The translations under genes and the position numbers were made by a program. This document shows positions 14,275 to 46,268 of a DNA stretch of 46,979 bases, one piece after another. Every line of letters begins with the position of its first letter. Position 1 is the stretch's first letter. The DNA comes from Candidatus Aenigmatarchaeota archaeon (GTDB lineage: Archaea > Aenigmatarchaeota > Aenigmatarchaeia > QMZP01 > QMZT01): the NCBI GenBank assembly GCA_043808015.1, contig JAZDFI010000028.1:1-46979 (forward strand), given 5' to 3'. The notes under the pieces were generated by a model that saw nothing but the letters and a program-made list of their open reading frames with translations, was not told where the DNA came from and did not search any database.

Positions 14275-15276
14275 TTACCAGCTGAAACCGGAAACGTCGA
14301 AAGCGAATGCCGCCTCTGCAACGAACTGTTTGCGGTCTTTCTTCGGCGGCGTTGGATTGAACCTGTTCCATATTCTCGCGTCGTTGAAGGCCAGGTGCAA
14401 ATTATCCACGCATTCTGCGCTTTTTCCCAGCACGGGCAGCGCGTCGAAGCTGCTGACGTTTCTTATGCGGCTGCTGAAAAACGAGTCCTCGTTCTGGCCT
14501 CTGGGCGGCTGTATTGTGGTTTCCGCGACCCTGTGCGTCATGAGATTGCTCGTGTCGACGAATGACGCCTGCACGTGACCGCCGTAATTCTTCAGGTCAC
14601 CGGCAACCACATGCACCAACGGAAGCAGAATGCTGTTGTATTCTTCCGGGCTCAGCGAGTTCTTGGCGGGCATGGTGGCCAGCCTGGTGAAGAAGAGCGC
14701 CTTGTCCTCGCAGTCGCCTCCTTTCGTGCCGGCGACTTGCAGGTATTGCTTCGGGAACATGTAAACGTTCTCGGTTGTGAAGTTCTGGGCATCCGGCTTG
14801 TAAAGCCTGAACTGCCTGCTGCCAAGGAAGTGCCTGTAGAATTCGGCGACATGCTCGTTGAAATCGCCGCTGAGTACCTGCTGCAGTTTGATGTCGCCGG
14901 GCAGGCCTTTTTCCTTGATGTATTTGTTCAGCTCTTCCATGCTCAGCGGATCGTCCAGGAACTCGTTGACGGGAATCAGGTCGAGTTTTATTGACCTGTC
15001 GCCGAACATCTCGTGCTTGCTGTAGCCATACCTCTTATGGGACACGTTGAGGGCTTCCATGTTCGCGGGTTTATTAGCGACTGTCTCCGTGAACTCGCCG
15101 GCCTTTATGAAAACGGCTTTGTTAACCTCGAAATCAACCCTGTCGATGTTAGCGGTGATGTAGTTGTCTGCCTGTAGCGCATCGAAATCGCAGTGCGCCA
15201 TGAGCTGCGTCTTGTAATCGGCAAGCAGTTTCTTGTAAAGGCTTTTCCTGAAATTGTAGCTGCTGAACAGTCCCAT
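14275..15276 (-). CDS. Hypothetical protein with a transglutaminase-like GDCED motif
   Basis: GGDCEDKALFF followed by YGGHV and AETT. Confidence 0.55.
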   Translation of the reverse strand: MGLFSSYNFRKSLYKKLLADYKTQLMAHCDFDALQADNYITANIDRVDFEVNKAVFIKAGEFTETVANKPANMEALNVSHKRYGYSKHEMFGDRSIKLDLIPVNEFLDDPLSMEELNKYIKEKGLPGDIKLQQVLSGDFNEHVAEFYRHFLGSRQFRLYKPDAQNFTTENVYMFPKQYLQVAGTKGGDCEDKALFFTRLATMPAKNSLSPEEYNSILLPLVHVVAGDLKNYGGHVQASFVDTSNLMTHRVAETTIQPPRGQNEDSFFSSRIRNVSSFDALPVLGKSAECVDNLHLAFNDARIWNRFNPTPPKKDRKQFVAEAAFAFDVSGFSW

Positions 15277-16067: not shown

Positions 16068-16259
16068 TTATAGTTTCTTCATCTTTATGCACTGCACCGG
16101 GCAGGCGTCCATTGCTTCCTTGTTGCAGCCAAGCTCCTTGACTTCGGTCTTCCTGGGCTTCGCTTTATCGCCGTCCATAACCCAGTTGTCGGGGCAGACT
16201 GCCGCGCAGGCGCCGCATCCTATGCACGCATCGTGGTCCTGTATTATTTTGAAAGACAT
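16068..16259 (-). CDS. Single-cluster ferredoxin
   Basis: CIGCGACAAVCP...CPVQCI. ATG at 16259 is preceded by a GGAGGTG RBS; last gene of the por operon. Confidence 0.88.
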   Translation of the reverse strand: MSFKIIQDHDACIGCGACAAVCPDNWVMDGDKAKPRKTEVKELGCNKEAMDACPVQCIKMKKL

Positions 16260-16304
16260 ATCACAACACCTCCATTTTGAAAGCATGATCAACTTGACGG
16301 TGGA

Positions 16305-17216
16305 TCATTCGGAGCACATCTTGCTCGTGCGTTCCCAGTCGCTGTCCACGTGCTCCTGAATCTTTTTTATAATATGACTGTTGTCCGGCTTAAATAAATG
16401 GGAGAAACGCTTCTGCGGCTTGAGGTATTCCTCGACGGGTTTCTTCTCAAGGACTTCCTTGGTTATTTTCATGACGCCTTTCTCGCTCTCGAAAAGTATC
16501 CACATTCCAGTATCGACCGCGAGCCGTGCGAGTTCGACTGTCCTCCACGAATCAAAGCCCCATCCCACAGGACAGGGGTTCAGGATGTGCAGGAACGATG
16601 GTTGATTCTCTTTCTTAAGCGCTTTCACCACCTTCGCCTTCAGGTCGTCTATGTGGCCGACGGTCGCGGTCGCTATGTATGGGATGTGGTGCGCCGCAAC
16701 GATGTCGACTATCGACTTTTTCACGGTAAGGTTGCCTGGCTTCACCGAGCCGGAAGGGCTGGTCGTGGTCGACGCGCCCAACGGGGTTGCGCTGGACCGC
16801 TGCACGCCAGTGTTCATGTAAGCTTCGTTATCGAGGCAGATGTAGCACACCTTCTCGCCTCGCTCGAGCATGCCGGACAGCGCCTGTAAACCGATGTCTA
16901 GCGTGCCGCCGTCGCCCGCGATGGCGATGACGTTCGCTGTGCGTCCCTGTTTATCGAGCGCGTGGGACACGCCGCCCGCAATCGCTGCGGTGTTCTCGAA
17001 AGCTCCGTGAATGTAATTGACTCCCCATGATGTGTTGGGATACTGGGAGCTGAATATTTCCAGGCATGACGTCGCGTTGACTATCACGGTGTTCTTGCCT
17101 GCAACGCCGAGGATTACGCGCACGGCTATCGTTTCCGGGCATCCGGAGCAGTTGCTCGCGCCCTGGAAGAACAATGCGCAGCCTTCGCAGCCTTTCTTTT
17201 CGTCAGTCATATTCAC
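16305..17216 (-). CDS. porB: Pyruvate/2-oxoacid:ferredoxin oxidoreductase beta subunit (TPP-binding)
   Basis: CSGC, NATSCLE, AFENTAA, AGDGGTLDIG, LDNEAYMNTGVQRS and PCPVGW. Confidence 0.93.
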   Translation of the reverse strand: MNMTDEKKGCEGCALFFQGASNCSGCPETIAVRVILGVAGKNTVIVNATSCLEIFSSQYPNTSWGVNYIHGAFENTAAIAGGVSHALDKQGRTANVIAIAGDGGTLDIGLQALSGMLERGEKVCYICLDNEAYMNTGVQRSSATPLGASTTTSPSGSVKPGNLTVKKSIVDIVAAHHIPYIATATVGHIDDLKAKVVKALKKENQPSFLHILNPCPVGWGFDSWRTVELARLAVDTGMWILFESEKGVMKITKEVLEKKPVEEYLKPQKRFSHLFKPDNSHIIKKIQEHVDSDWERTSKMCSE

Positions 17217-18375
17217 ACCCAGACAGTCCCCTTCGTCTCTTTGCGGATATCGTCGAATATTTTCATGAAATCATCAATCTTGACATCGCGCCCTCCGAGG
17301 CCTCCGATGAACGAGCTGACGTTCTTGGTCTTGACCGTGCCGCGGACCTCGTGACACAGCGCCCCGCCCAGACCAGGGGAAAGAACCTTTTCCAGAACGC
17401 CCAAAGCATGGACGTTCTTTATCGCATTCTTTATCTCGGCGAACGGGAACGGCCTGAAGCTCTTGATGCGTATGAGGCCGACGTCGTGAATCTTGTGCTC
17501 GCGGATGACGTGCTTCGCCGTGCCGGCGAGTGAGCCCATGGTTATCAGCGCGTACTTGGCGTTCTCCATGTTGAACGTCTCGATGAGACCATCGCCATAG
17601 CCGCGGCCGAACTGCTCCTTGAACTCCTTGTTGACCTCGTGTATGACTTCAATCGAGCGCTCCATCGCGTCGTTCTGCTCCTTCTTGAATTCCTGGTAGA
17701 CTTCAGGGCCGGCCCACATGCCCTGGCTGACCGGCTTCTCGAAGTCGATGACAGGGCCGGCGAATTTCGGCAGGAACTTGCCCACCGTGTTCGCATCGGG
17801 AATGTCGACCGGCTCGTAAACATGCGATAGAAAAAAGCCGTCTATGCATACCATGACGGGAAGGCGGACTTTGGCGTGCTCAGCGATTTTGTACGCCTGT
17901 ATTACCGTATCGAGGGCTTCCTGCGCGCTCTCGCAGTATAACTGTATCCATCCCGAGTCGCGCGCGCCGAACGAGTCGGACCAGTCGTTCCATATGTTCA
18001 GAGGCGCGGAAAGCGCGCGGTTGGCGTTGACCATGACCACAGGCAGGTGCATGCCTGAGACGATGTATAACATCTCGTACATGAGGGCGAGTCCCTGGCT
18101 CGAAGAAGCGGTGAACGTGCGCACGCCTGTCGCCTGCGCTCCAAGGCAGACGGACATGGCCGAGTGCTCGGACTCGACGTTCACGTATTTCGCGTCCATC
18201 TCGCCGTCCGCGATTATCTCCGAGAGCCGCTCGATTATGTGAGTATCCACTATTCAATAAACCCAAGTTCATTGAATAATTGTGGCGTAATCGGGTAAGC
18301 TGCTACTACACCCGGTTCACACAATTTAACGGCTTCGGCAATCGCGTGGCTTCCTTCCATGACTTTTTTTGACAT
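17213..18375 (-). CDS. porA: Pyruvate/2-oxoacid:ferredoxin oxidoreductase alpha subunit in two exons (18280-18375 and 17213-18244); spliced product 375 aa
   Basis: Exon 1 translates as [32 protein letters not shown]. Exon 2 begins THIIERL...VESEHSA...TASSSQGL. Removing 18245-18279 restores YPITPQTH in frame. Confidence 0.9.
18245..18279 (-). other. 35-nt bulge-helix-bulge intron in porA mRNA
   Basis: Minus strand reads CCAC AA|T TATTCAATGAAC TTGG GTTTATTGAATA GTGG AT|A. This gives a 4-bp CCAC/GTGG helix, two 3-nt bulges and a 12-bp inner stem. Confidence 0.85.
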
Positions 18376-18411: not shown

Positions 18412-18702
18412 CTACTTCTCCGTGCTCTTCTCTACCGCCTTGAACGGGCAAAGGACCATGCACAACAGGCATCCCTTGCAGTAATCATAATCCACTTTCG
18501 CCACTTTCGTTTTTTTATCGGCGACCTCGTGCAGCTCGATGCAGCCCTCCGGGCAATATTGCACGCAGATTCCACATCCGCGACATTTGTCATCGAGGAA
18601 CACAGGCTTTAGCGAGCGCCAGCTGCCCGTTTTCTTGGACTTCGAGCTGCTCGTGCTCGGGCACATGCTGCCTTTGCTCAAGTCATGCTCCTTGGTCGTC
18701 AT
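18412..18702 (-). CDS. porD: Pyruvate/2-oxoacid:ferredoxin oxidoreductase delta subunit
   Basis: TGSWRSLKP plus two CxxCxxCxxxCP motifs, and DYDYCKGC. Confidence 0.92.
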   Translation of the reverse strand: MTTKEHDLSKGSMCPSTSSSKSKKTGSWRSLKPVFLDDKCRGCGICVQYCPEGCIELHEVADKKTKVAKVDYDYCKGCLLCMVLCPFKAVEKSTEK

Positions 18703-19235
18703 GCTTTCGTCTCCTCGTAGGCGCGCTTTATCGCCTGTACGTTCTTTTCCTTTACAGGGCCGCTGAATCGCTCGCTTATCGCCTCTATCAGGCTTTCGAT
18801 GGTCAAGAGTCCCGTCGCTTTCGCGAACGCGCCGAGCATTATGGTGTTCACTATCGGCCTGCCCAGGACTTCCATGGCAATCTTGTTCGCGTCGACCGTG
18901 TAAGTCGAGAACGTCCCGAAGCCCTTCTTGCCTTCTGCGTTGATGAGTATGACGCCGCCTTTCTTCAGGCCCGTCGTCACGTCAAGCGCGTGCGTGAGCG
19001 ATTCGTCGAGAACTATGACATAATCCGGCTCGTAGATGTGCGTGCGCAGGGTTATGAACTCCTTCGCCAGCCGGCAATATGCTTCGACCGGCGAACCCCT
19101 TCGTTCGGGCCCGAATTTCGGAATGGCCTGGCTGAACTTGCCGTCTTTGAAGGCTGCGACTGCCATGAGCTCTGCTGTCGTGACCGCGCCCTGCCCGCCT
19201 CGGCCGTGAATGCGAATCTCGGTTATCTTGTCCAT
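18699..19235 (-). CDS. porC: Pyruvate/2-oxoacid:ferredoxin oxidoreductase gamma subunit
   Basis: EIRIHGRGGQGAVT, PKFGPERRGSPV and NTIMLGA. Confidence 0.93.
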   Translation of the reverse strand: MDKITEIRIHGRGGQGAVTTAELMAVAAFKDGKFSQAIPKFGPERRGSPVEAYCRLAKEFITLRTHIYEPDYVIVLDESLTHALDVTTGLKKGGVILINAEGKKGFGTFSTYTVDANKIAMEVLGRPIVNTIMLGAFAKATGLLTIESLIEAISERFSGPVKEKNVQAIKRAYEETKA

Positions 19236-19398: not shown

Positions 19399-20322
19399 AT
19401 GACAGATAACTACAGAGGAAACATAAAAAACATAAGAGCGAAGATTCCAAGCGCGTCCGATTTTGACGCCAATGAAATGAGACTTCTTTCGGATTTGCAT
19501 AATCATTCCCACGACGTCAGCACGGATATCCTGAATGAAATTTTCATGGAATTGTCCAACGGGGAGAAAGTGGCCGAAAACACACAAAGGGTCATGGAAA
19601 TACCGTGGCTCAGCGCTAATGTCTTCTCTTTGTTCAAAAGAGCGGAAATGAGGACTAAGCTGCTGAGATGCAAAGACGTGCTGGATCCGCCAACCTTTTA
19701 CCCGAGCAGCGATCCTGACCTGGCTGATTATGGTTTTATAACTGAACCGGGCTTAAGCCATGCCGCACGCAGTGTATGGGGATTGATAGTCAAATATGCG
19801 AGGCTTAAGAATGAAACGGGACAGGGCAACAGCCACCACGAAGGCGTTTACAAGCTCGTGAATTTTTTGGCGGGCAAAGGCATCGGGAAAAACAAAAAAT
19901 GGATGGCCAGGGTGGGAAAAAGCCCGGATTATCTGATTCTGGGCGGCCAAGAATGCTCAGTGAGCTATATAAAAAACAATGAAAAAGCCGAATACGTAAA
20001 AGACACGCCGGACATGATGACAGGAAGGGCAAAGGATATAGTTGCCACGTTTGCCGCTTACGATGCGGTGTCTGATTTAAAACCGTGCCCGGGCTCGGAA
20101 GATGGCCAATCCACTGTCGCAACATCGAGACCCAACCCGCTGGCCCCGCTTGTGGAGATATACGAGAATGGATTCATGCTGGGGCATCCAAGACTTGAAA
20201 TCGGCAGAGCTGAAGGCGCTTACATGGGTTTCCCATCTAGCGATTATATACTGAACGATAACGCCGCCAGAAAAGTCGTCCTGCGCACGGGCGGGATGGG
20301 AAAATTAACAATAAGCGTGTGA
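19399..20322 (+). CDS. Hypothetical protein
   Basis: 307-aa ORF divergent from the por operon; no recognised motif. Confidence 0.65.
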   Translation: MTDNYRGNIKNIRAKIPSASDFDANEMRLLSDLHNHSHDVSTDILNEIFMELSNGEKVAENTQRVMEIPWLSANVFSLFKRAEMRTKLLRCKDVLDPPTFYPSSDPDLADYGFITEPGLSHAARSVWGLIVKYARLKNETGQGNSHHEGVYKLVNFLAGKGIGKNKKWMARVGKSPDYLILGGQECSVSYIKNNEKAEYVKDTPDMMTGRAKDIVATFAAYDAVSDLKPCPGSEDGQSTVATSRPNPLAPLVEIYENGFMLGHPRLEIGRAEGAYMGFPSSDYILNDNAARKVVLRTGGMGKLTISV

Positions 20323-20460: not shown

Positions 20461-23274
20461 ATGAAGCCTGCATTTTTTGTGGCCTGCGCCATGACAACAT
20501 TAATAATAATTAATGCGGCGGCGGCCCAGGACAAAATTTTAGATTTATACGTTAAGCCAAAAATAAACGGCGTCTCATCGCCAAACACCGCCTTCACATA
20601 CACTTTCGCCTTTACCGACAGCGAACTGTGCGCCGATGTGTTGCTTTCAAAATCTGCAATCGTCACGACCGATTCGGATGGAATAGCGCATATCCCGATA
20701 AACATAAGCTCCCTGGCGAATGCGACGGATTACATCTGCGAATACAGGAACGGCGTTTTGCGGGCGGTGCACAACTGGACCATGCCGTCATGGTTCTATT
20801 TGAAAGATTATCCCACGCAGCTCTCGAATTTCACCAACGACATCGTCAACACCACACAATCAGAAGATAGCGGCGGCATCTGGTCGATAAACACCACGTG
20901 GCTCTACGACACCGTTTCCGGGTGGATAGAATTTCCAACATGGGACCAGTCCCTCAACACCACCGACAACGTCACGTTCAATAACATAACGGTAACCGGC
21001 AACCTCACGGTCGGTTCGGGGACGCTGTTCGTTGACGCAGTGAACAACAACGTCGGCATTGGCACGACAACTCCTGTTGATGGATTACAAGTAGGTTCTG
21101 ATGCTGCCGGTTTGAATGTTTCCATTAAGAGCACTCTTGGTCCTGAACTCGCTCCCGCTTTAACTGCTGGAAACTGGACATTGAGTGCTGATTGGAGATA
21201 TTTGACTTCGCCCGATAGATTAGAAAAATACGCCGAGGGTGTTGGAACAGCAACTCCAACATCATCAATGGGAGTAACTATTGGAAAAACATACAAAGTA
21301 GTAATAACTGTTGATGAAATGTCTGCTATGTGGATGGAATTCAAATTAGGCGGGTCTGCAGGAAAAATCGCTTATACTGCTGGAACATATACTTATTACA
21401 TAACAGCAGTTACAACTGAAAATTTAGTTATATTTGCTACCAGAAGTGCCTCGAGATTTTCAATATCATCAGTAAGTGTGATAGAATTGAGTGATGGGAA
21501 TTTGGAGTTAAATGGTCTTACAGTAAAAGGCCCATCATTATTCAGTGGCAGAGTAGGAATTGGAGCAACCGCCCCAAGAGGAACTTTAGATGTAACAAAT
21601 GGTAATGATAATCAGAAAGAAGTCAATATTTATTTTGGTTCTTACGGAGCATTAGGGCAAACGGATTATGGAACGGCTTGGGGAACAGTAGATAAGGGTC
21701 TTATAATGGGTAATAATGCTCATGGCGGGGTGCAGGGTTATAGGATAACTTACGATAGTAGTGGTTATGGTTATCGAGCAATGACCATGGATGCTTTTGG
21801 AATGTATTTTTATGCTATTAATGGAGCGACAACAGCAGATGCTTTGATTTCCGAAACAGCAAAAAGGATGGGTATATTGAATTCTGGTTATGTGGGTATT
21901 GGTTCAAATTCAACAACCGCTGTTTCAACTTTAGATTTATCTTCTGCAACTACCCCAATTCTAACTTTAAGAAGAGTGGACACGTCAATTAATGCTAACG
22001 ATTTGATAGGACAGATTGATTGGTATGCTAAAGATGATTCAACCACAACAACATTTACTCCTGCGTCCATAAGGGCTTATGCCTCCAACACGATTGCATC
22101 AGATATAAATCCGGGATATTTATCATTTTGGACTACTCCTGAAGATGTTGCTGGGGCTTTAACGGAAAGGATGAGGATTGACGCATCAGGCAACGTCGGC
22201 ATCGGGACTACAATCCCGACACAGAAGCTCGACGTGAACGGCAGCGCGTCAATTACGGGCAACCTATCAGCAGACTCGGGAACGTTTTTCGTGGATGCGG
22301 AGCATGACATGGTCGGCATCGGGACTACAATCCCGACAAGACCATTAATGGTTGCCGGTTCAACCATGATTTACAAGGGAACGCCCCTTGTTTATGCGGA
22401 CCCGGAAGCCGTTGACCTTGCAGTCACGAACTCTGCTGGGGATTCCCGTTTTTTCTTCGGTCAAGCCACTTCAGCTTTTGGCGGATTTAACTGGTTATAT
22501 AATTCCGACGTCATGCTATCAAAGCTGCAACTGGGCTGGGGCATGTCAGGAATGACATTTTTGAGAAACAAGAATGTCGGCGTCGGCACCGATTATCCCA
22601 CTGCCAATTTTCAAGTAGACCAATCAACAACAGGTCCGGGCGGAAGAGTTTCCGTGAGTGGAACAACAGTATCAGAAGTGTTACCGGGCTCTATGCAGTT
22701 TACCAACACTTTCAAAGTCGGGGATACAATTACTGTAACAACAACGGCCGGTTCAGAAACGAAAACAATCACTTCAATAACTTCTGATGCGAGCTTGGAA
22801 ACAGAGGCCTTTGCGGGAACGGCAAGCAACGCATACTATTATCTTGCAGGCAACAATAACACGCTCGCAGTAAAGGGTTATGGCTATGTGGGCATAGGGA
22901 CGAACAACCCAACACAGAAACTCGACGTGAACGGCTCCGCCAACATCGCAGGCAACCTTACGGTGAACTCGAACACGCTCTACGTGGATGCCGTGAACAA
23001 CAGAATCGGGATAGGAACCGATACGCCGAACGTGGCGTTGAATGTGATAGGGAGCGCGAACGTGACCGGCAACATGACGGTGGGCGAATCCGCCACCATA
23101 ACCGGCAACCTGACTGCATCCGCCCTGAACATCAGCAGCGTCATGTTCATCCCCACCGACACCGCGCCCCAGTGCATCAAAGGCATGGTATACTATGACG
23201 ACAGCATGAACGACCTGTGCCAGTGCAACTCCACGGATTTTGTAGTCGTGGGAACGACAACATTATGCACATAA
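20461..23274 (+). CDS. Large secreted/surface beta-rich protein with repeated VGIGTTxP modules (fibre/adhesin-like)
   Basis: Signal-peptide-like N-terminus, about 8 VGIG(T/S/A)-type repeats, many N-x-T/S sequons and a Cys-containing C-terminus. Confidence 0.8.
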   Translation: MKPAFFVACAMTTLIIINAAAAQDKILDLYVKPKINGVSSPNTAFTYTFAFTDSELCADVLLSKSAIVTTDSDGIAHIPINISSLANATDYICEYRNGVLRAVHNWTMPSWFYLKDYPTQLSNFTNDIVNTTQSEDSGGIWSINTTWLYDTVSGWIEFPTWDQSLNTTDNVTFNNITVTGNLTVGSGTLFVDAVNNNVGIGTTTPVDGLQVGSDAAGLNVSIKSTLGPELAPALTAGNWTLSADWRYLTSPDRLEKYAEGVGTATPTSSMGVTIGKTYKVVITVDEMSAMWMEFKLGGSAGKIAYTAGTYTYYITAVTTENLVIFATRSASRFSISSVSVIELSDGNLELNGLTVKGPSLFSGRVGIGATAPRGTLDVTNGNDNQKEVNIYFGSYGALGQTDYGTAWGTVDKGLIMGNNAHGGVQGYRITYDSSGYGYRAMTMDAFGMYFYAINGATTADALISETAKRMGILNSGYVGIGSNSTTAVSTLDLSSATTPILTLRRVDTSINANDLIGQIDWYAKDDSTTTTFTPASIRAYASNTIASDINPGYLSFWTTPEDVAGALTERMRIDASGNVGIGTTIPTQKLDVNGSASITGNLSADSGTFFVDAEHDMVGIGTTIPTRPLMVAGSTMIYKGTPLVYADPEAVDLAVTNSAGDSRFFFGQATSAFGGFNWLYNSDVMLSKLQLGWGMSGMTFLRNKNVGVGTDYPTANFQVDQSTTGPGGRVSVSGTTVSEVLPGSMQFTNTFKVGDTITVTTTAGSETKTITSITSDASLETEAFAGTASNAYYYLAGNNNTLAVKGYGYVGIGTNNPTQKLDVNGSANIAGNLTVNSNTLYVDAVNNRIGIGTDTPNVALNVIGSANVTGNMTVGESATITGNLTASALNISSVMFIPTDTAPQCIKGMVYYDDSMNDLCQCNSTDFVVVGTTTLCT
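22195..22338 (+). repeat. Exact 27-nt direct repeat GTCGGCATCGGGACTACAATCCCGACA (22195-22221 and 22312-22338)
   Basis: Read directly from the sequence; encodes VGIGTTIPT twice. Confidence 0.85.
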
Positions 23275-45262: not shown

Positions 45263-45292
45263 AATGCAAACATGACATTTTATCATGATAAA

Positions 45293-45365
<73 letters not shown>

Positions 45366-45374
45366 ATATCGTGT

Positions 45375-45881
45375 TCAGAATTTCTTGAAGAAATCCTCTT
45401 CCTTCTCATCATCTTCTTCTTTTTGCTTCTTGCCGGATTTCGGCTGCTCTTCAGAAAAGTGGCTTATGTTCGCCACTATTCTCTTCGTAGTCTCGGCGAA
45501 CATCTCGCTGGACAGCTTCTTGGTGGGCAGTATGCTCTCGAGCCCCGGTGGCCCCTCGGACAGGAACCTTGGAATGACGTGGAAATGGACGTGCGGTATC
45601 ACTTGGCCCGCGGCCCGCTCGTTGCTCTGGCCTATCGATACGCCGTCCGCTTTCATTCCCTTCTTTACCGCGATTGCCATCTTCTTGACAATCTTTGAAA
45701 GCTCGCCCAGTTCATGGTCCGGCATCTGCATGATCGTCTCGTAATGCTTCTTGGGCATGACCAGCGTGTGGCCGGGGTTCCTGGGGTTGATGTCGAGGAA
45801 AGCGATATGCTCGGAATCCTCGTATATTTTCTGCGTAGGGATCTCGCCTTCCGCTATCTTGCAAAACAGGCATTCTTCCAT
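45375..45881 (-). CDS. HIT family hydrolase
   Basis: CLFCKI, FLDINP..PGHTLV and AGQVIPHVHFHVIPR. Confidence 0.93.
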   Translation of the reverse strand: MEECLFCKIAEGEIPTQKIYEDSEHIAFLDINPRNPGHTLVMPKKHYETIMQMPDHELGELSKIVKKMAIAVKKGMKADGVSIGQSNERAAGQVIPHVHFHVIPRFLSEGPPGLESILPTKKLSSEMFAETTKRIVANISHFSEEQPKSGKKQKEEDDEKEEDFFKKF

Positions 45882-45997
45882 ATTATATACCTCTCCCTTC
45901 CGATTTTAAATATTATTCTCCGTCGTTTTTCGCTAGTTTTTTGCTGAACCTTTTATCGTTTTTCGCTAAAGCCTTTTTCTAAAGGCCGTTTTTTGAT

Positions 45998-46020
45998 AAA
46001 CCTTTTTCCTAAAAAGGTTT
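45998..46020. terminator. Hairpin AAACCTTTTT-CCT-AAAAAGGTTT just 3' of tRNA-Pro
   Basis: Perfect 10-bp inverted repeat; a terminator role is inferred only from position. Confidence 0.4.
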
Positions 46021-46021
46021 A

Positions 46022-46096
46022 TGGGGTCACTGAGATTCGAACTCAGGTCTGAAGCTCCCAAAGCTCCGATGCTAGGCCAGGCTACACCATGACCCC
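46022..46096 (-). tRNA. tRNA-Pro(UGG)
   Basis: GGGGTCA...GGAGC-TT-TGG-GA-GCTTC...CTGAG-TTCGAAT-CTCAG-TGACCCC-A. Confidence 0.93.
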
Positions 46097-46160
46097 GTAG
46101 TTAAGATAAATAACAACAGTTTATTAATATAATTATTCTGTAATATTCCATATAACTTGC

Positions 46161-46268
46161 GCCTCAGTAGCTCAGTGGTAATTTCGATGAAGCATTCGTA
46201 TGCTTCAGTCGCTAAAGAGCGATCGCCTCGTAAGCGATAGGCCGAGGGTTCAATCCCCTCCTGGGGCT
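46161..46268 (+). tRNA. tRNA-Thr(CGU) with a 36-nt D-loop intron (~46180-46215)
   Basis: Acceptor stem GCCTCAG/CTGGGGC. Anticodon arm ATCGC-CT-CGT-AA-GCGAT. The D-arm GCTCAGTGGT|AGAGC is interrupted by a TGAAGCA/TGCTTCA hairpin. Confidence 0.9.

Follow-up and report, generated by a model that had tools for sequence, protein, structure and literature searches.

The interrupted porA gene

The DNA analysed here, called the window, comprises 46,979 nucleotides (positions 1 to 46,979) of contig JAZDFI010000028.1 from the genome of a Candidatus Aenigmatarchaeota archaeon (G000; GenBank assembly GCA_043808015.1). Its minus strand carries the operon of a pyruvate:ferredoxin oxidoreductase, in which the alpha-subunit gene porA is divided by 35 nucleotides (nt). 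Exon 1 (18280..18375, 32 codons) ends in ...AAYPITPQ and shares 29/32 residues with an uninterrupted orthologue from the same genus (G004). Exon 2 (17213..18244, 343 codons plus stop) begins with THIIER and contains the Pfam domains POR_N (profile 20-231) and PFOR_II, with E values of 1e-63 and 7e-24. The 35 nt that separate the exons (18245..18279) contain an in-frame TAG. Very probably they form an archaeal bulge-helix-bulge (BHB) intron within the coding part of porA, which the splicing endonuclease EndA and the ligase RtcB excise from the mRNA.

Read without excision, the gene gives two open reading frames (ORFs). The first, of 41 amino acids (aa; 18375..18250), runs from MSKK to AAYPITPQ, continues with nine unrelated residues (LFNELGFIE) and stops at the TAG. 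The second, of 345 aa (18250..17213), lies in a different frame, starts at a GTG as MDTHIIE and has a POR_N match that begins only at profile position 20 of 231, without the N-terminus of the profile. Exactly 35 nt (18279-18245) separate the last base of the Gln codon CAA (18280) from the first base of the Thr codon ACT (18244), and these boundaries are unique, as a one-base slide in either direction alters the product. Excision joins 32 and 343 codons into a 375-aa PorA, and the rejoined segment YPITPQ|THIIE is identical to the one that uninterrupted orthologues read straight through. The break falls one codon past the catalytic YPITP motif that closes exon 1; PMC5020499 assigns to the Thr of this motif the binding of the pyruvate carboxylate and describes every residue of the motif as essential. 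An earlier examination of the letters of the window, the sequence-only reading, had described this layout: an ORF track that starts PorA at MDTHIIE and misses its N-terminus, that N-terminus at 18280-18375 in another frame, the 35-nt insert with its in-frame TAG and 41-aa unspliced product, and a YPITPQ|TH junction that yields 375 aa. Its coordinates, sequence and arithmetic are correct to the base; it also named YPITP as a conserved active-site motif.

The insert recurs in independent DNA. Although the source assembly is of metagenome type and comprises 39 contigs, contigs from runs X1, X3 and X4, which belong to three studies, cross 18245-18279 without an indel and show a loop variant (18262, 18263) that preserves the fold. 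Other run contigs lose their match exactly at 18244, as expected of relatives without the insert. A homologous insert of 35 nt is carried by the genomes of two more species and by four contigs from metagenomes. Within the genus, the insert stands at the same place in G003 (93% aa identity) and G002 (80%) and is absent from G004 (78%).

Both exons evolve as parts of a functional protein gene. Between insert-bearing species, dN/dS is 0.11-0.14 at dS of 0.39-0.94, with no indels and no stops, and third codon positions account for 80/111 and 153/237 exon differences in two comparisons. Exon 1 by itself also shows low dN. The intron differs at 2/35 and 7/35 positions between insert-bearing species, and an intact exon-2 ORF of 340-354 aa is present in 21/21 insert-bearing genes with full sequence. 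Relaxed selection, which the sequence-only reading had named as a mark of a pseudogene, is not what these values indicate; they reflect purifying selection.

Pfam annotation gives the operon order porG-porD-porA-porB-ferredoxin, all on the minus strand. The first gene, porG, encodes the gamma subunit (18699..19235; PF01558 POR, E 1.6e-42), and porD encodes the delta subunit with 2x[4Fe-4S] clusters (18412..18702; Fer4 families, E ~1e-11). Downstream of porA lie porB, for the beta subunit that binds thiamine pyrophosphate (16305..17216; PF02775, E 3e-21), and a small ferredoxin gene 3' of porB (16068..16292; Fer4_13/Fer4_15). These matches bear out the statement that the remainder of the operon is intact. 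With porA as query, G000 returns one PorA-like match, porA itself, and the 96-nt region that contains the intron matches nowhere else in the genome at a significant level.

Structure and recurrence of the insert

In the minimum-free-energy structure computed by RNAfold, the exon sequence CCAC (18282..18285), which includes the third base of the Pro codon and the first base of the Gln codon, pairs with GUGG at the 3' end of the intron. From 5' to 3', the intron comprises one bulge nucleotide, a 12-nt arm (18278-18267), a UUGG loop (18266-18263), the opposite 12-nt arm (18262-18251), GUGG (18250-18247) and two bulge nucleotides (18246-18245). The structure combines the CCAC/GUGG central helix, a 3-nt AAU bulge and an inner stem of 12 base pairs (bp) with exon-exon pairing CGAUUA/UAAUCG, exactly the fold drawn in the sequence-only reading. 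The 55-nt core folds at -15.8 kcal/mol, whereas its shuffles average -6.1 (z = -4.3) and 0/200 of them fold as well; for the 96-nt region z is -1.8, with 11/200 shuffles folding as well. In the 96-nt fold, CGAUUA (18288..18293) and UAAUCG (18237-18232) form a possible distal outer helix, which loses one pair in G002. Median exon-exon duplex energy is -4.6 kcal/mol in intron-bearing genes versus -3.1 in the others, a slight difference uncorrected for relatedness, and contiguous outer-helix pairing across introns amounts to 0-2 bp.

The two splice sites differ in their surroundings. In 24/24 loci the 5' site lies in a true 3-nt bulge, and the 3' site lies two nucleotides beyond the central helix. 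In the window, the 3' AUA sits within a 2 x 9 internal loop that only a single G:C pair could close. Of the two 3-nt bulges proposed by the sequence-only reading, the 5' AAU bulge is therefore real, while the 3' AUA lacks an adjacent closing helix. The porA motif is a relaxed BHB of the HBh' type and does not take the strict hBHBh' form. Applied to the 24 loci, the rule of cleavage after the second nucleotide of each bulge predicts the exact codon junction PQ|T(H/E) in 24/24. The geometry agrees with that of the tRNA intron at position 37/38, in which, according to the accessible text of PMC4090602, anticodon positions 34-35 end the 4-bp helix. A scanner that applies the BHB rule also recovers exactly the canonical intron that ARAGORN places in the tRNA-Lys(UUU) gene of contig C18.

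Inserts of this kind occur widely in the class. Among 371 Aenigmatarchaeota-class genomes, 131 have a PorA-like match at E <= 1e-60, and the junction was read in 125 of these (six left out; second paralogues fall mostly outside the count). An insert is present in 16/125, the junction is intact in 107, and 2 are unreadable at contig ends; the carriers are spread over 11/23 families read. The metagenome set of 80 loci adds 8 with an insert (7 distinct) and 66 with an intact junction; the other 6 are unreadable or odd. The resulting 24 loci hold 23 distinct inserts with lengths of 20, 28, 29, 30, 31, 32, 33, 35 and 36 nt, all placed exactly between the Gln codon and the next Thr codon. They are found in two divergent alpha-subunit clades, YPITPQ|THI.E and FPITPQ|TE.IE, and cannot be aligned outside the BHB core. 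In a separate set of 74 loci from named genome records, which serves as a negative control, 68 are intact and four carry inserts, all identical to known ones; within this set, every locus from bacterial, Micrarchaeota and Iainarchaeota records is uninterrupted.

The helix between exon and intron is conserved through compensating changes. Across the 23 distinct introns, 91/92 cells of the central helix pair. One exon position in this helix is variable, the third base of the Pro codon, and it pairs with the intron in 23/23 cases through five pair types (A-U 13, G-C 5, U-A 2, U-G 2, G-U 1). When introns are re-dealt among exon contexts, 23/23 is reached in 0/10,000 trials (mean 13.6). A wider count of structure pairs uses 20 of the 23 introns, leaving out the near-copies G003, L035 and L040. 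In this set, 91.1% of cells pair versus 65.3% in shuffles (0/500) and 29-41% with slid partners; 45 cells show changes on both sides versus 13.7 expected (0/500 shuffles); and the covariation score is 0.675 versus 0.143 (0/500 shuffles). Pairing reaches 98.8% in the central helix and 96.3% over the first 4 bp of the inner helix, where each of the four pairs has both-side changes. The sequence-only reading had looked to porA orthologues for presence or absence of the insert and for stem covariation; the class holds both, the covariation in the core.

Codon usage at the junction differs between genes with and without an insert. The Gln codon is CAA in 20/23 distinct carriers versus 51/160 distinct insert-less junctions, and the Pro codon is CCC in 0/23 versus 47/160. 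This bias suggests that the bulge and helix at the splice site limit which synonymous codons are used.

The reading frame carries a further regularity. A stop in the frame of exon 1 lies within 23/23 distinct introns versus 13.2 expected (0/5000 shuffles), compared with 8 and 12 of 23 introns with stops in the other two frames. Such a constant stop suggests selection to abort translation of unspliced porA mRNA. Insert lengths fall into every class modulo 3: remainder 2 in 13 distinct inserts, remainder 1 in five and remainder 0 in five.

Proposed splicing of porA and its alternatives

Enzymes suited to BHB splicing are encoded in G000. RtcB is present in one copy (G000:C29), covers profile positions 1-426 and has no stops. 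EndA is also present in one copy (G000:C9:15186-16370; L003:862-2049, + strand; PF01974, 75 bits), and its 395 aa align over full length to PDB entries 4fz2/9w2k (E 2e-105). Entry 4fz2 is the epsilon2 EndA of ARMAN-2, which, in the accessible text of PMC3488258, cleaves strict and relaxed BHB motifs; an enzyme of this type suits the HBh'-type motif of porA. Full-length epsilon2 homologues occur throughout the order of G000 (families f1-f6) and also in f19, f20, f22 and f31, an enzyme type that the accessible part of a 2018 account places only in Micrarchaeum and Mancarchaeum (PMC5829648). As a predictor of the porA intron, the epsilon2 type was rejected, since it does not track intron presence across the class.

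In the proposed mechanism, the CCAC of the exon would pair with the GUGG at the 3' end of the intron in the pre-mRNA. This pairing would set the 5' splice site within the 3-nt bulge between the helix and the 12-bp hairpin, and the 3' site two bases past the helix. The three-unit, epsilon2-type EndA would then cut after the second nucleotide of each bulge, at the A of 18280 and the U of 18245 (minus strand), and RtcB would join the exons into an mRNA for a 375-aa PorA with YPITPQTHIIE intact. The predicted spliced junction is ...CCACAA|ACUCAC..., with ...ACGCCACAA joined to ACUCACAUA..., and the protein would hold the junction-spanning peptide YPITPQTHIIER. The excised intron would probably leave as a small circle. 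Unspliced mRNA would give a 41-aa peptide only, because the intron places a stop in the frame of exon 1. If PorA requires splicing in this way, pyruvate oxidation would follow as dependent on the splicing machinery.

A BHB intron is the favoured interpretation because several lines of evidence converge: the insert is seen in independent DNA, the exons are under purifying selection, the site is conserved, the core covaries, and RtcB and an epsilon2-type EndA are encoded. The same evidence sustains the earlier proposal that porA is spliced and not pseudogenised. Several observations weigh against this interpretation. Splicing is inferred here from comparison of DNA. The outer pair that adjoins the 3' site is kept in 8/20 introns, so this site is not in a closed 3-nt bulge and cleavage there would rely on an enzyme that accepts relaxed motifs. 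The tRNA positive control is exact for 1/10 ARAGORN intron calls, and the nine others are probably relaxed motifs or miscalls. In L047 the central helix contains a C.A mismatch, the sole unpaired cell. The 35-nt family alone (7 sequences) covaries weakly, with 2 both-side changes and 80/500 shuffles as high, and sequence relatedness inflates all shuffle statistics; the controls with slid partners, and the occurrence of five pair types at a single position, are independent of this inflation. Nine carriers outside the order of G000 have only weak, short EndA matches of the alpha-unit type (best E 1e-11 to 1e-17); G084, the carrier of a 20-nt insert, is an example from outside this order with a short alpha-type EndA. 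One carrier, G257 (L126, G257:C8:24492-25700; 30-nt intron), lacks about 22 codons and is frameshifted near residue 178, and no EndA match is listed for it; this copy may be decaying, or its contig may be misassembled.

Other explanations must account for the same features. It is highly improbable that porA is a pseudogene, or a gene with a tolerated disruption, in which a small palindromic DNA insertion is never removed. The broken frame and the stop inside the insert fit this idea, as do the second lesion downstream in G257 and the ease with which reduced genomes lose genes. Against it stand the low dN/dS, maintained up to a dS of 0.94 with no further lesion, and the exon 2 that is intact in all 21 full-length carriers. 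The insert also has no other copy in the genome and covaries in structure with the exon, and a search with porA as query gives no other PorA-like match in G000, where the gene stands in an otherwise intact operon. An error of assembly or sequencing is hardly credible: a metagenome-type assembly in 39 contigs might invite one, yet the insert is found in three runs of three studies, two other species genomes and four metagenome contigs, with sequence variants that preserve the fold. Cleavage by EndA without rejoining, which would make the BHB a site of mRNA destruction, is very unlikely. EndA does have substrates beyond tRNA and rRNA, including an element in a Haloferax 5' untranslated region (5'UTR), as described in the accessible text of PMC7714728. 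Without rejoining, however, no full-length PorA would form, yet both exons are kept by purifying selection as one protein, and RtcB is present.

Two further explanations leave the insert in the mRNA. In one, a 41-aa polypeptide and a 345-aa polypeptide, restarted at the GTG within the intron's GUGG, would assemble without splicing. Split genes occur in DPANN archaea, and an in-frame GTG lies 6 nt before exon 2 in G000 and at 13 other loci, but at 10/24 loci the short open stretch ahead of exon 2 offers no ATG, GTG or TTG. The break would also fall one codon after the catalytic YPITP motif, and the exon-intron covariation that keeps the BHB would be left unexplained; this arrangement is highly improbable. 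In the other, the ribosome would skip the insert by translational bypassing or programmed frameshifting. The stable hairpin within the skipped stretch has a parallel in phage T4 gene 60, where a 50-nt bypass involves a hairpin. The porA inserts fall into all three modulo-3 length classes and every one holds an in-frame stop, so neither a single frameshift nor simple read-through works. They also show no matching pair of take-off and landing codons, and in most of them CAA is followed by a sense codon. What is conserved is the recognition geometry of EndA and not a bypass signal, which makes a skipping ribosome a most improbable explanation.

The probable BHB intron of porA belongs to a family of inserts that occupies one codon boundary in many Aenigmatarchaeota and is frequently gained or lost. 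A quick IQ-TREE phylogeny covers 90 exon-2 proteins, 21 of them intron-bearing; G257 (broken), L058 (partial) and L053 (duplicate) are not in it. Intron status changes 17 times on this tree, and well-supported branches require at least 13 of these changes. Carriers hardly cluster, with 46/500 shuffles as low. Near-identical sisters differ in intron status in the pairs L047/G207, G019/G015, G317/G316, G254/G253 and G106/G086. All introns within the clade of G000 are homologous 35-mers, and the simplest reading there is one ancestral intron with three precise losses (L039, G004, L041). When such sisters are compared, divergence tends to peak in the final 30-nt window of exon 1. The metagenome contig L047 and the G207 locus L242 encode nearly identical proteins but differ by a 28-nt intron, and along the two genes identical 30-nt blocks alternate with diverged ones in a mosaic. 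The mosaic suggests recent recombination between alleles, and both patterns would fit intron turnover by that route.

Whether the intron is more than a passive relic is a separate matter. The identical codon boundary in two divergent clades, the 13 or more presence/absence flips and the constant stop codon are reasons to consider an actively mobile or selected element, an idea that remains doubtful on present evidence. Mobility could arise by re-insertion at the conserved site through reversal of EndA and RtcB, followed by copying into DNA, or by spread through allele recombination. If so, BHB mini-introns would represent a class of mobile element in DPANN protein genes, and the pyruvate oxidation of carriers would be tied to their capacity for RNA splicing. 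For the regulatory switch suggested by the sequence-only reading there is no evidence, and no function beyond persistence is shown.

Known introns and the wider genome

The cbf5 pre-mRNA intron of Crenarchaeota was reportedly the subject of work by Watanabe in 2002 and Yoshinari in 2006. According to the accessible text of Schwarz 2020 (PMC7714728), cbf5 was the only BHB intron reported in archaeal mRNA before the Haloferax 5'UTR case, which matches the description of cbf5 in the sequence-only reading as the established archaeal mRNA intron. A 2025 EndA paper, in its accessible part, cites only the cbf5 work (PMC12397907). In the full-text literature, a scope outside which subscription-only papers and bioRxiv supplements fall, no published intron in porA or any other ferredoxin oxidoreductase gene was found.

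As predicted from its sequence, the porA intron would join the small kind that cbf5 defines, BHB introns inside an archaeal protein-coding sequence. In the accessible account of Yokobori 2009 (PMC2738675), the cbf5 intron of Desulfurococcales and Sulfolobales is likewise short and of BHB type, its motif is often relaxed, it is linked to an EndA of broad specificity, and its distribution is patchy by lineage with secondary loss. Unlike cbf5, porA encodes an enzyme of central metabolism and not of RNA modification, and belongs to DPANN Aenigmatarchaeota and not to Crenarchaeota. Its presumed EndA, in the order of G000, is of epsilon2 type where that of the cbf5 hosts is heterotetrameric. Turnover in porA is much faster (at least 13 changes on the 90-row tree) and spans two divergent clades of oxidoreductase alpha subunits. 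Splicing of cbf5 has been shown by experiment, whereas that of porA is a prediction from sequence comparison.

Relaxed hBH and HBh' tRNA introns, such as that of ARMAN-2 pre-tRNA-Cys, offer a structural likeness. In the accessible texts of PMC3488258 and PMC4090602, they share the 4-bp helix, the 3-nt bulge and the intron hairpin, cover a size range (11-129 nt) that includes the porA inserts, and are cut by epsilon2 EndA. The host of the porA intron is instead an mRNA, and the exon half of its helix consists of codons, so that the protein limits how this half can change and its covariation runs through a synonymous site. The BHB intron in the 5'UTR of Haloferax volcanii HVO_1309 is also an EndA-processed mRNA element (Schwarz 2020, PMC7714728, accessible text). 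That element lies in an untranslated leader, whereas the porA intron breaks the reading frame, so that splicing would be obligatory for the protein. Another parallel is HAC1/XBP1 of eukaryotes. There, as proposed for porA, a short intron in a coding mRNA is removed by a protein endonuclease and a tRNA ligase with a change of frame. In HAC1/XBP1 the cut is made by Ire1 and the joining by tRNA ligase or RtcB; the nuclease and motif differ from those of porA, and a regulatory switch is proven only in HAC1/XBP1. The accessible text of PMC8718801 names this process as unconventional mRNA splicing.

In the searchable literature, archaeal mRNA BHB introns comprise the one in the cbf5 coding sequence of Crenarchaeota and one in a Haloferax 5'UTR. 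A second well-supported case, in another superphylum, would indicate that the tRNA-splicing machinery serves the expression of protein genes more widely than reported. It would also provide 23 natural variants of a minimal (20-36 nt) EndA substrate in mRNA. The intron would explain the recurrent annotation of a frameshifted porA in Aenigmatarchaeota; where it goes unrecognised, pyruvate oxidation would be counted as missing in metabolic reconstructions. Its rapid turnover makes intron gain and loss directly open to study.

Beyond porA, an ab initio scan of G000 returned 130,342 BHB-like structures, among which porA is the top structural match. Structures that rescue a reading frame number 204 versus a displaced-site control mean of 195 at an inner stem of at least 6 bp, and 38 versus 30.5 at a stem of at least 8 bp, with no excess in either case. 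The suggestion that such introns may be common in this lineage thus holds for porA across the class (16/125 genomes) and finds no support in other genes of G000. The rtcB and cbf5 genes of G000 are uninterrupted, and an archaeal metK was not found in this genome.

Near the por operon, three ORFs have no Pfam family at E <= 0.01: 19399-20322 (+, 307 aa), 20461-23274 (+, 937 aa) and 14275-15276 (-, 333 aa). The window's contig has no match to LAGLIDADG_3, GIY-YIG or HNH, and the ORFs neighbouring porA belong to no endonuclease family. Elsewhere, the 0.93-Mb G000 genome holds at least 7 ORFs with a LAGLIDADG_3 domain (C7:73226-73465, C34:41066-41584, C30:39993-40481, C8:22270-22497, C8:33931-34077, C15:3215-3418 and C14:40787-41071); BHB candidates beside them resembled noise and were set aside. 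ARAGORN calls only about 19 tRNA genes in this 91%-complete genome, and about half have predicted introns. The calls, which take in window positions 45292-46268, include odd ones such as a tRNA-Stop(tta). Many tRNA genes of G000 are probably disrupted in non-canonical ways, and a BHB candidate at C30:10059-10095 seems to lie in a tRNA D-arm.

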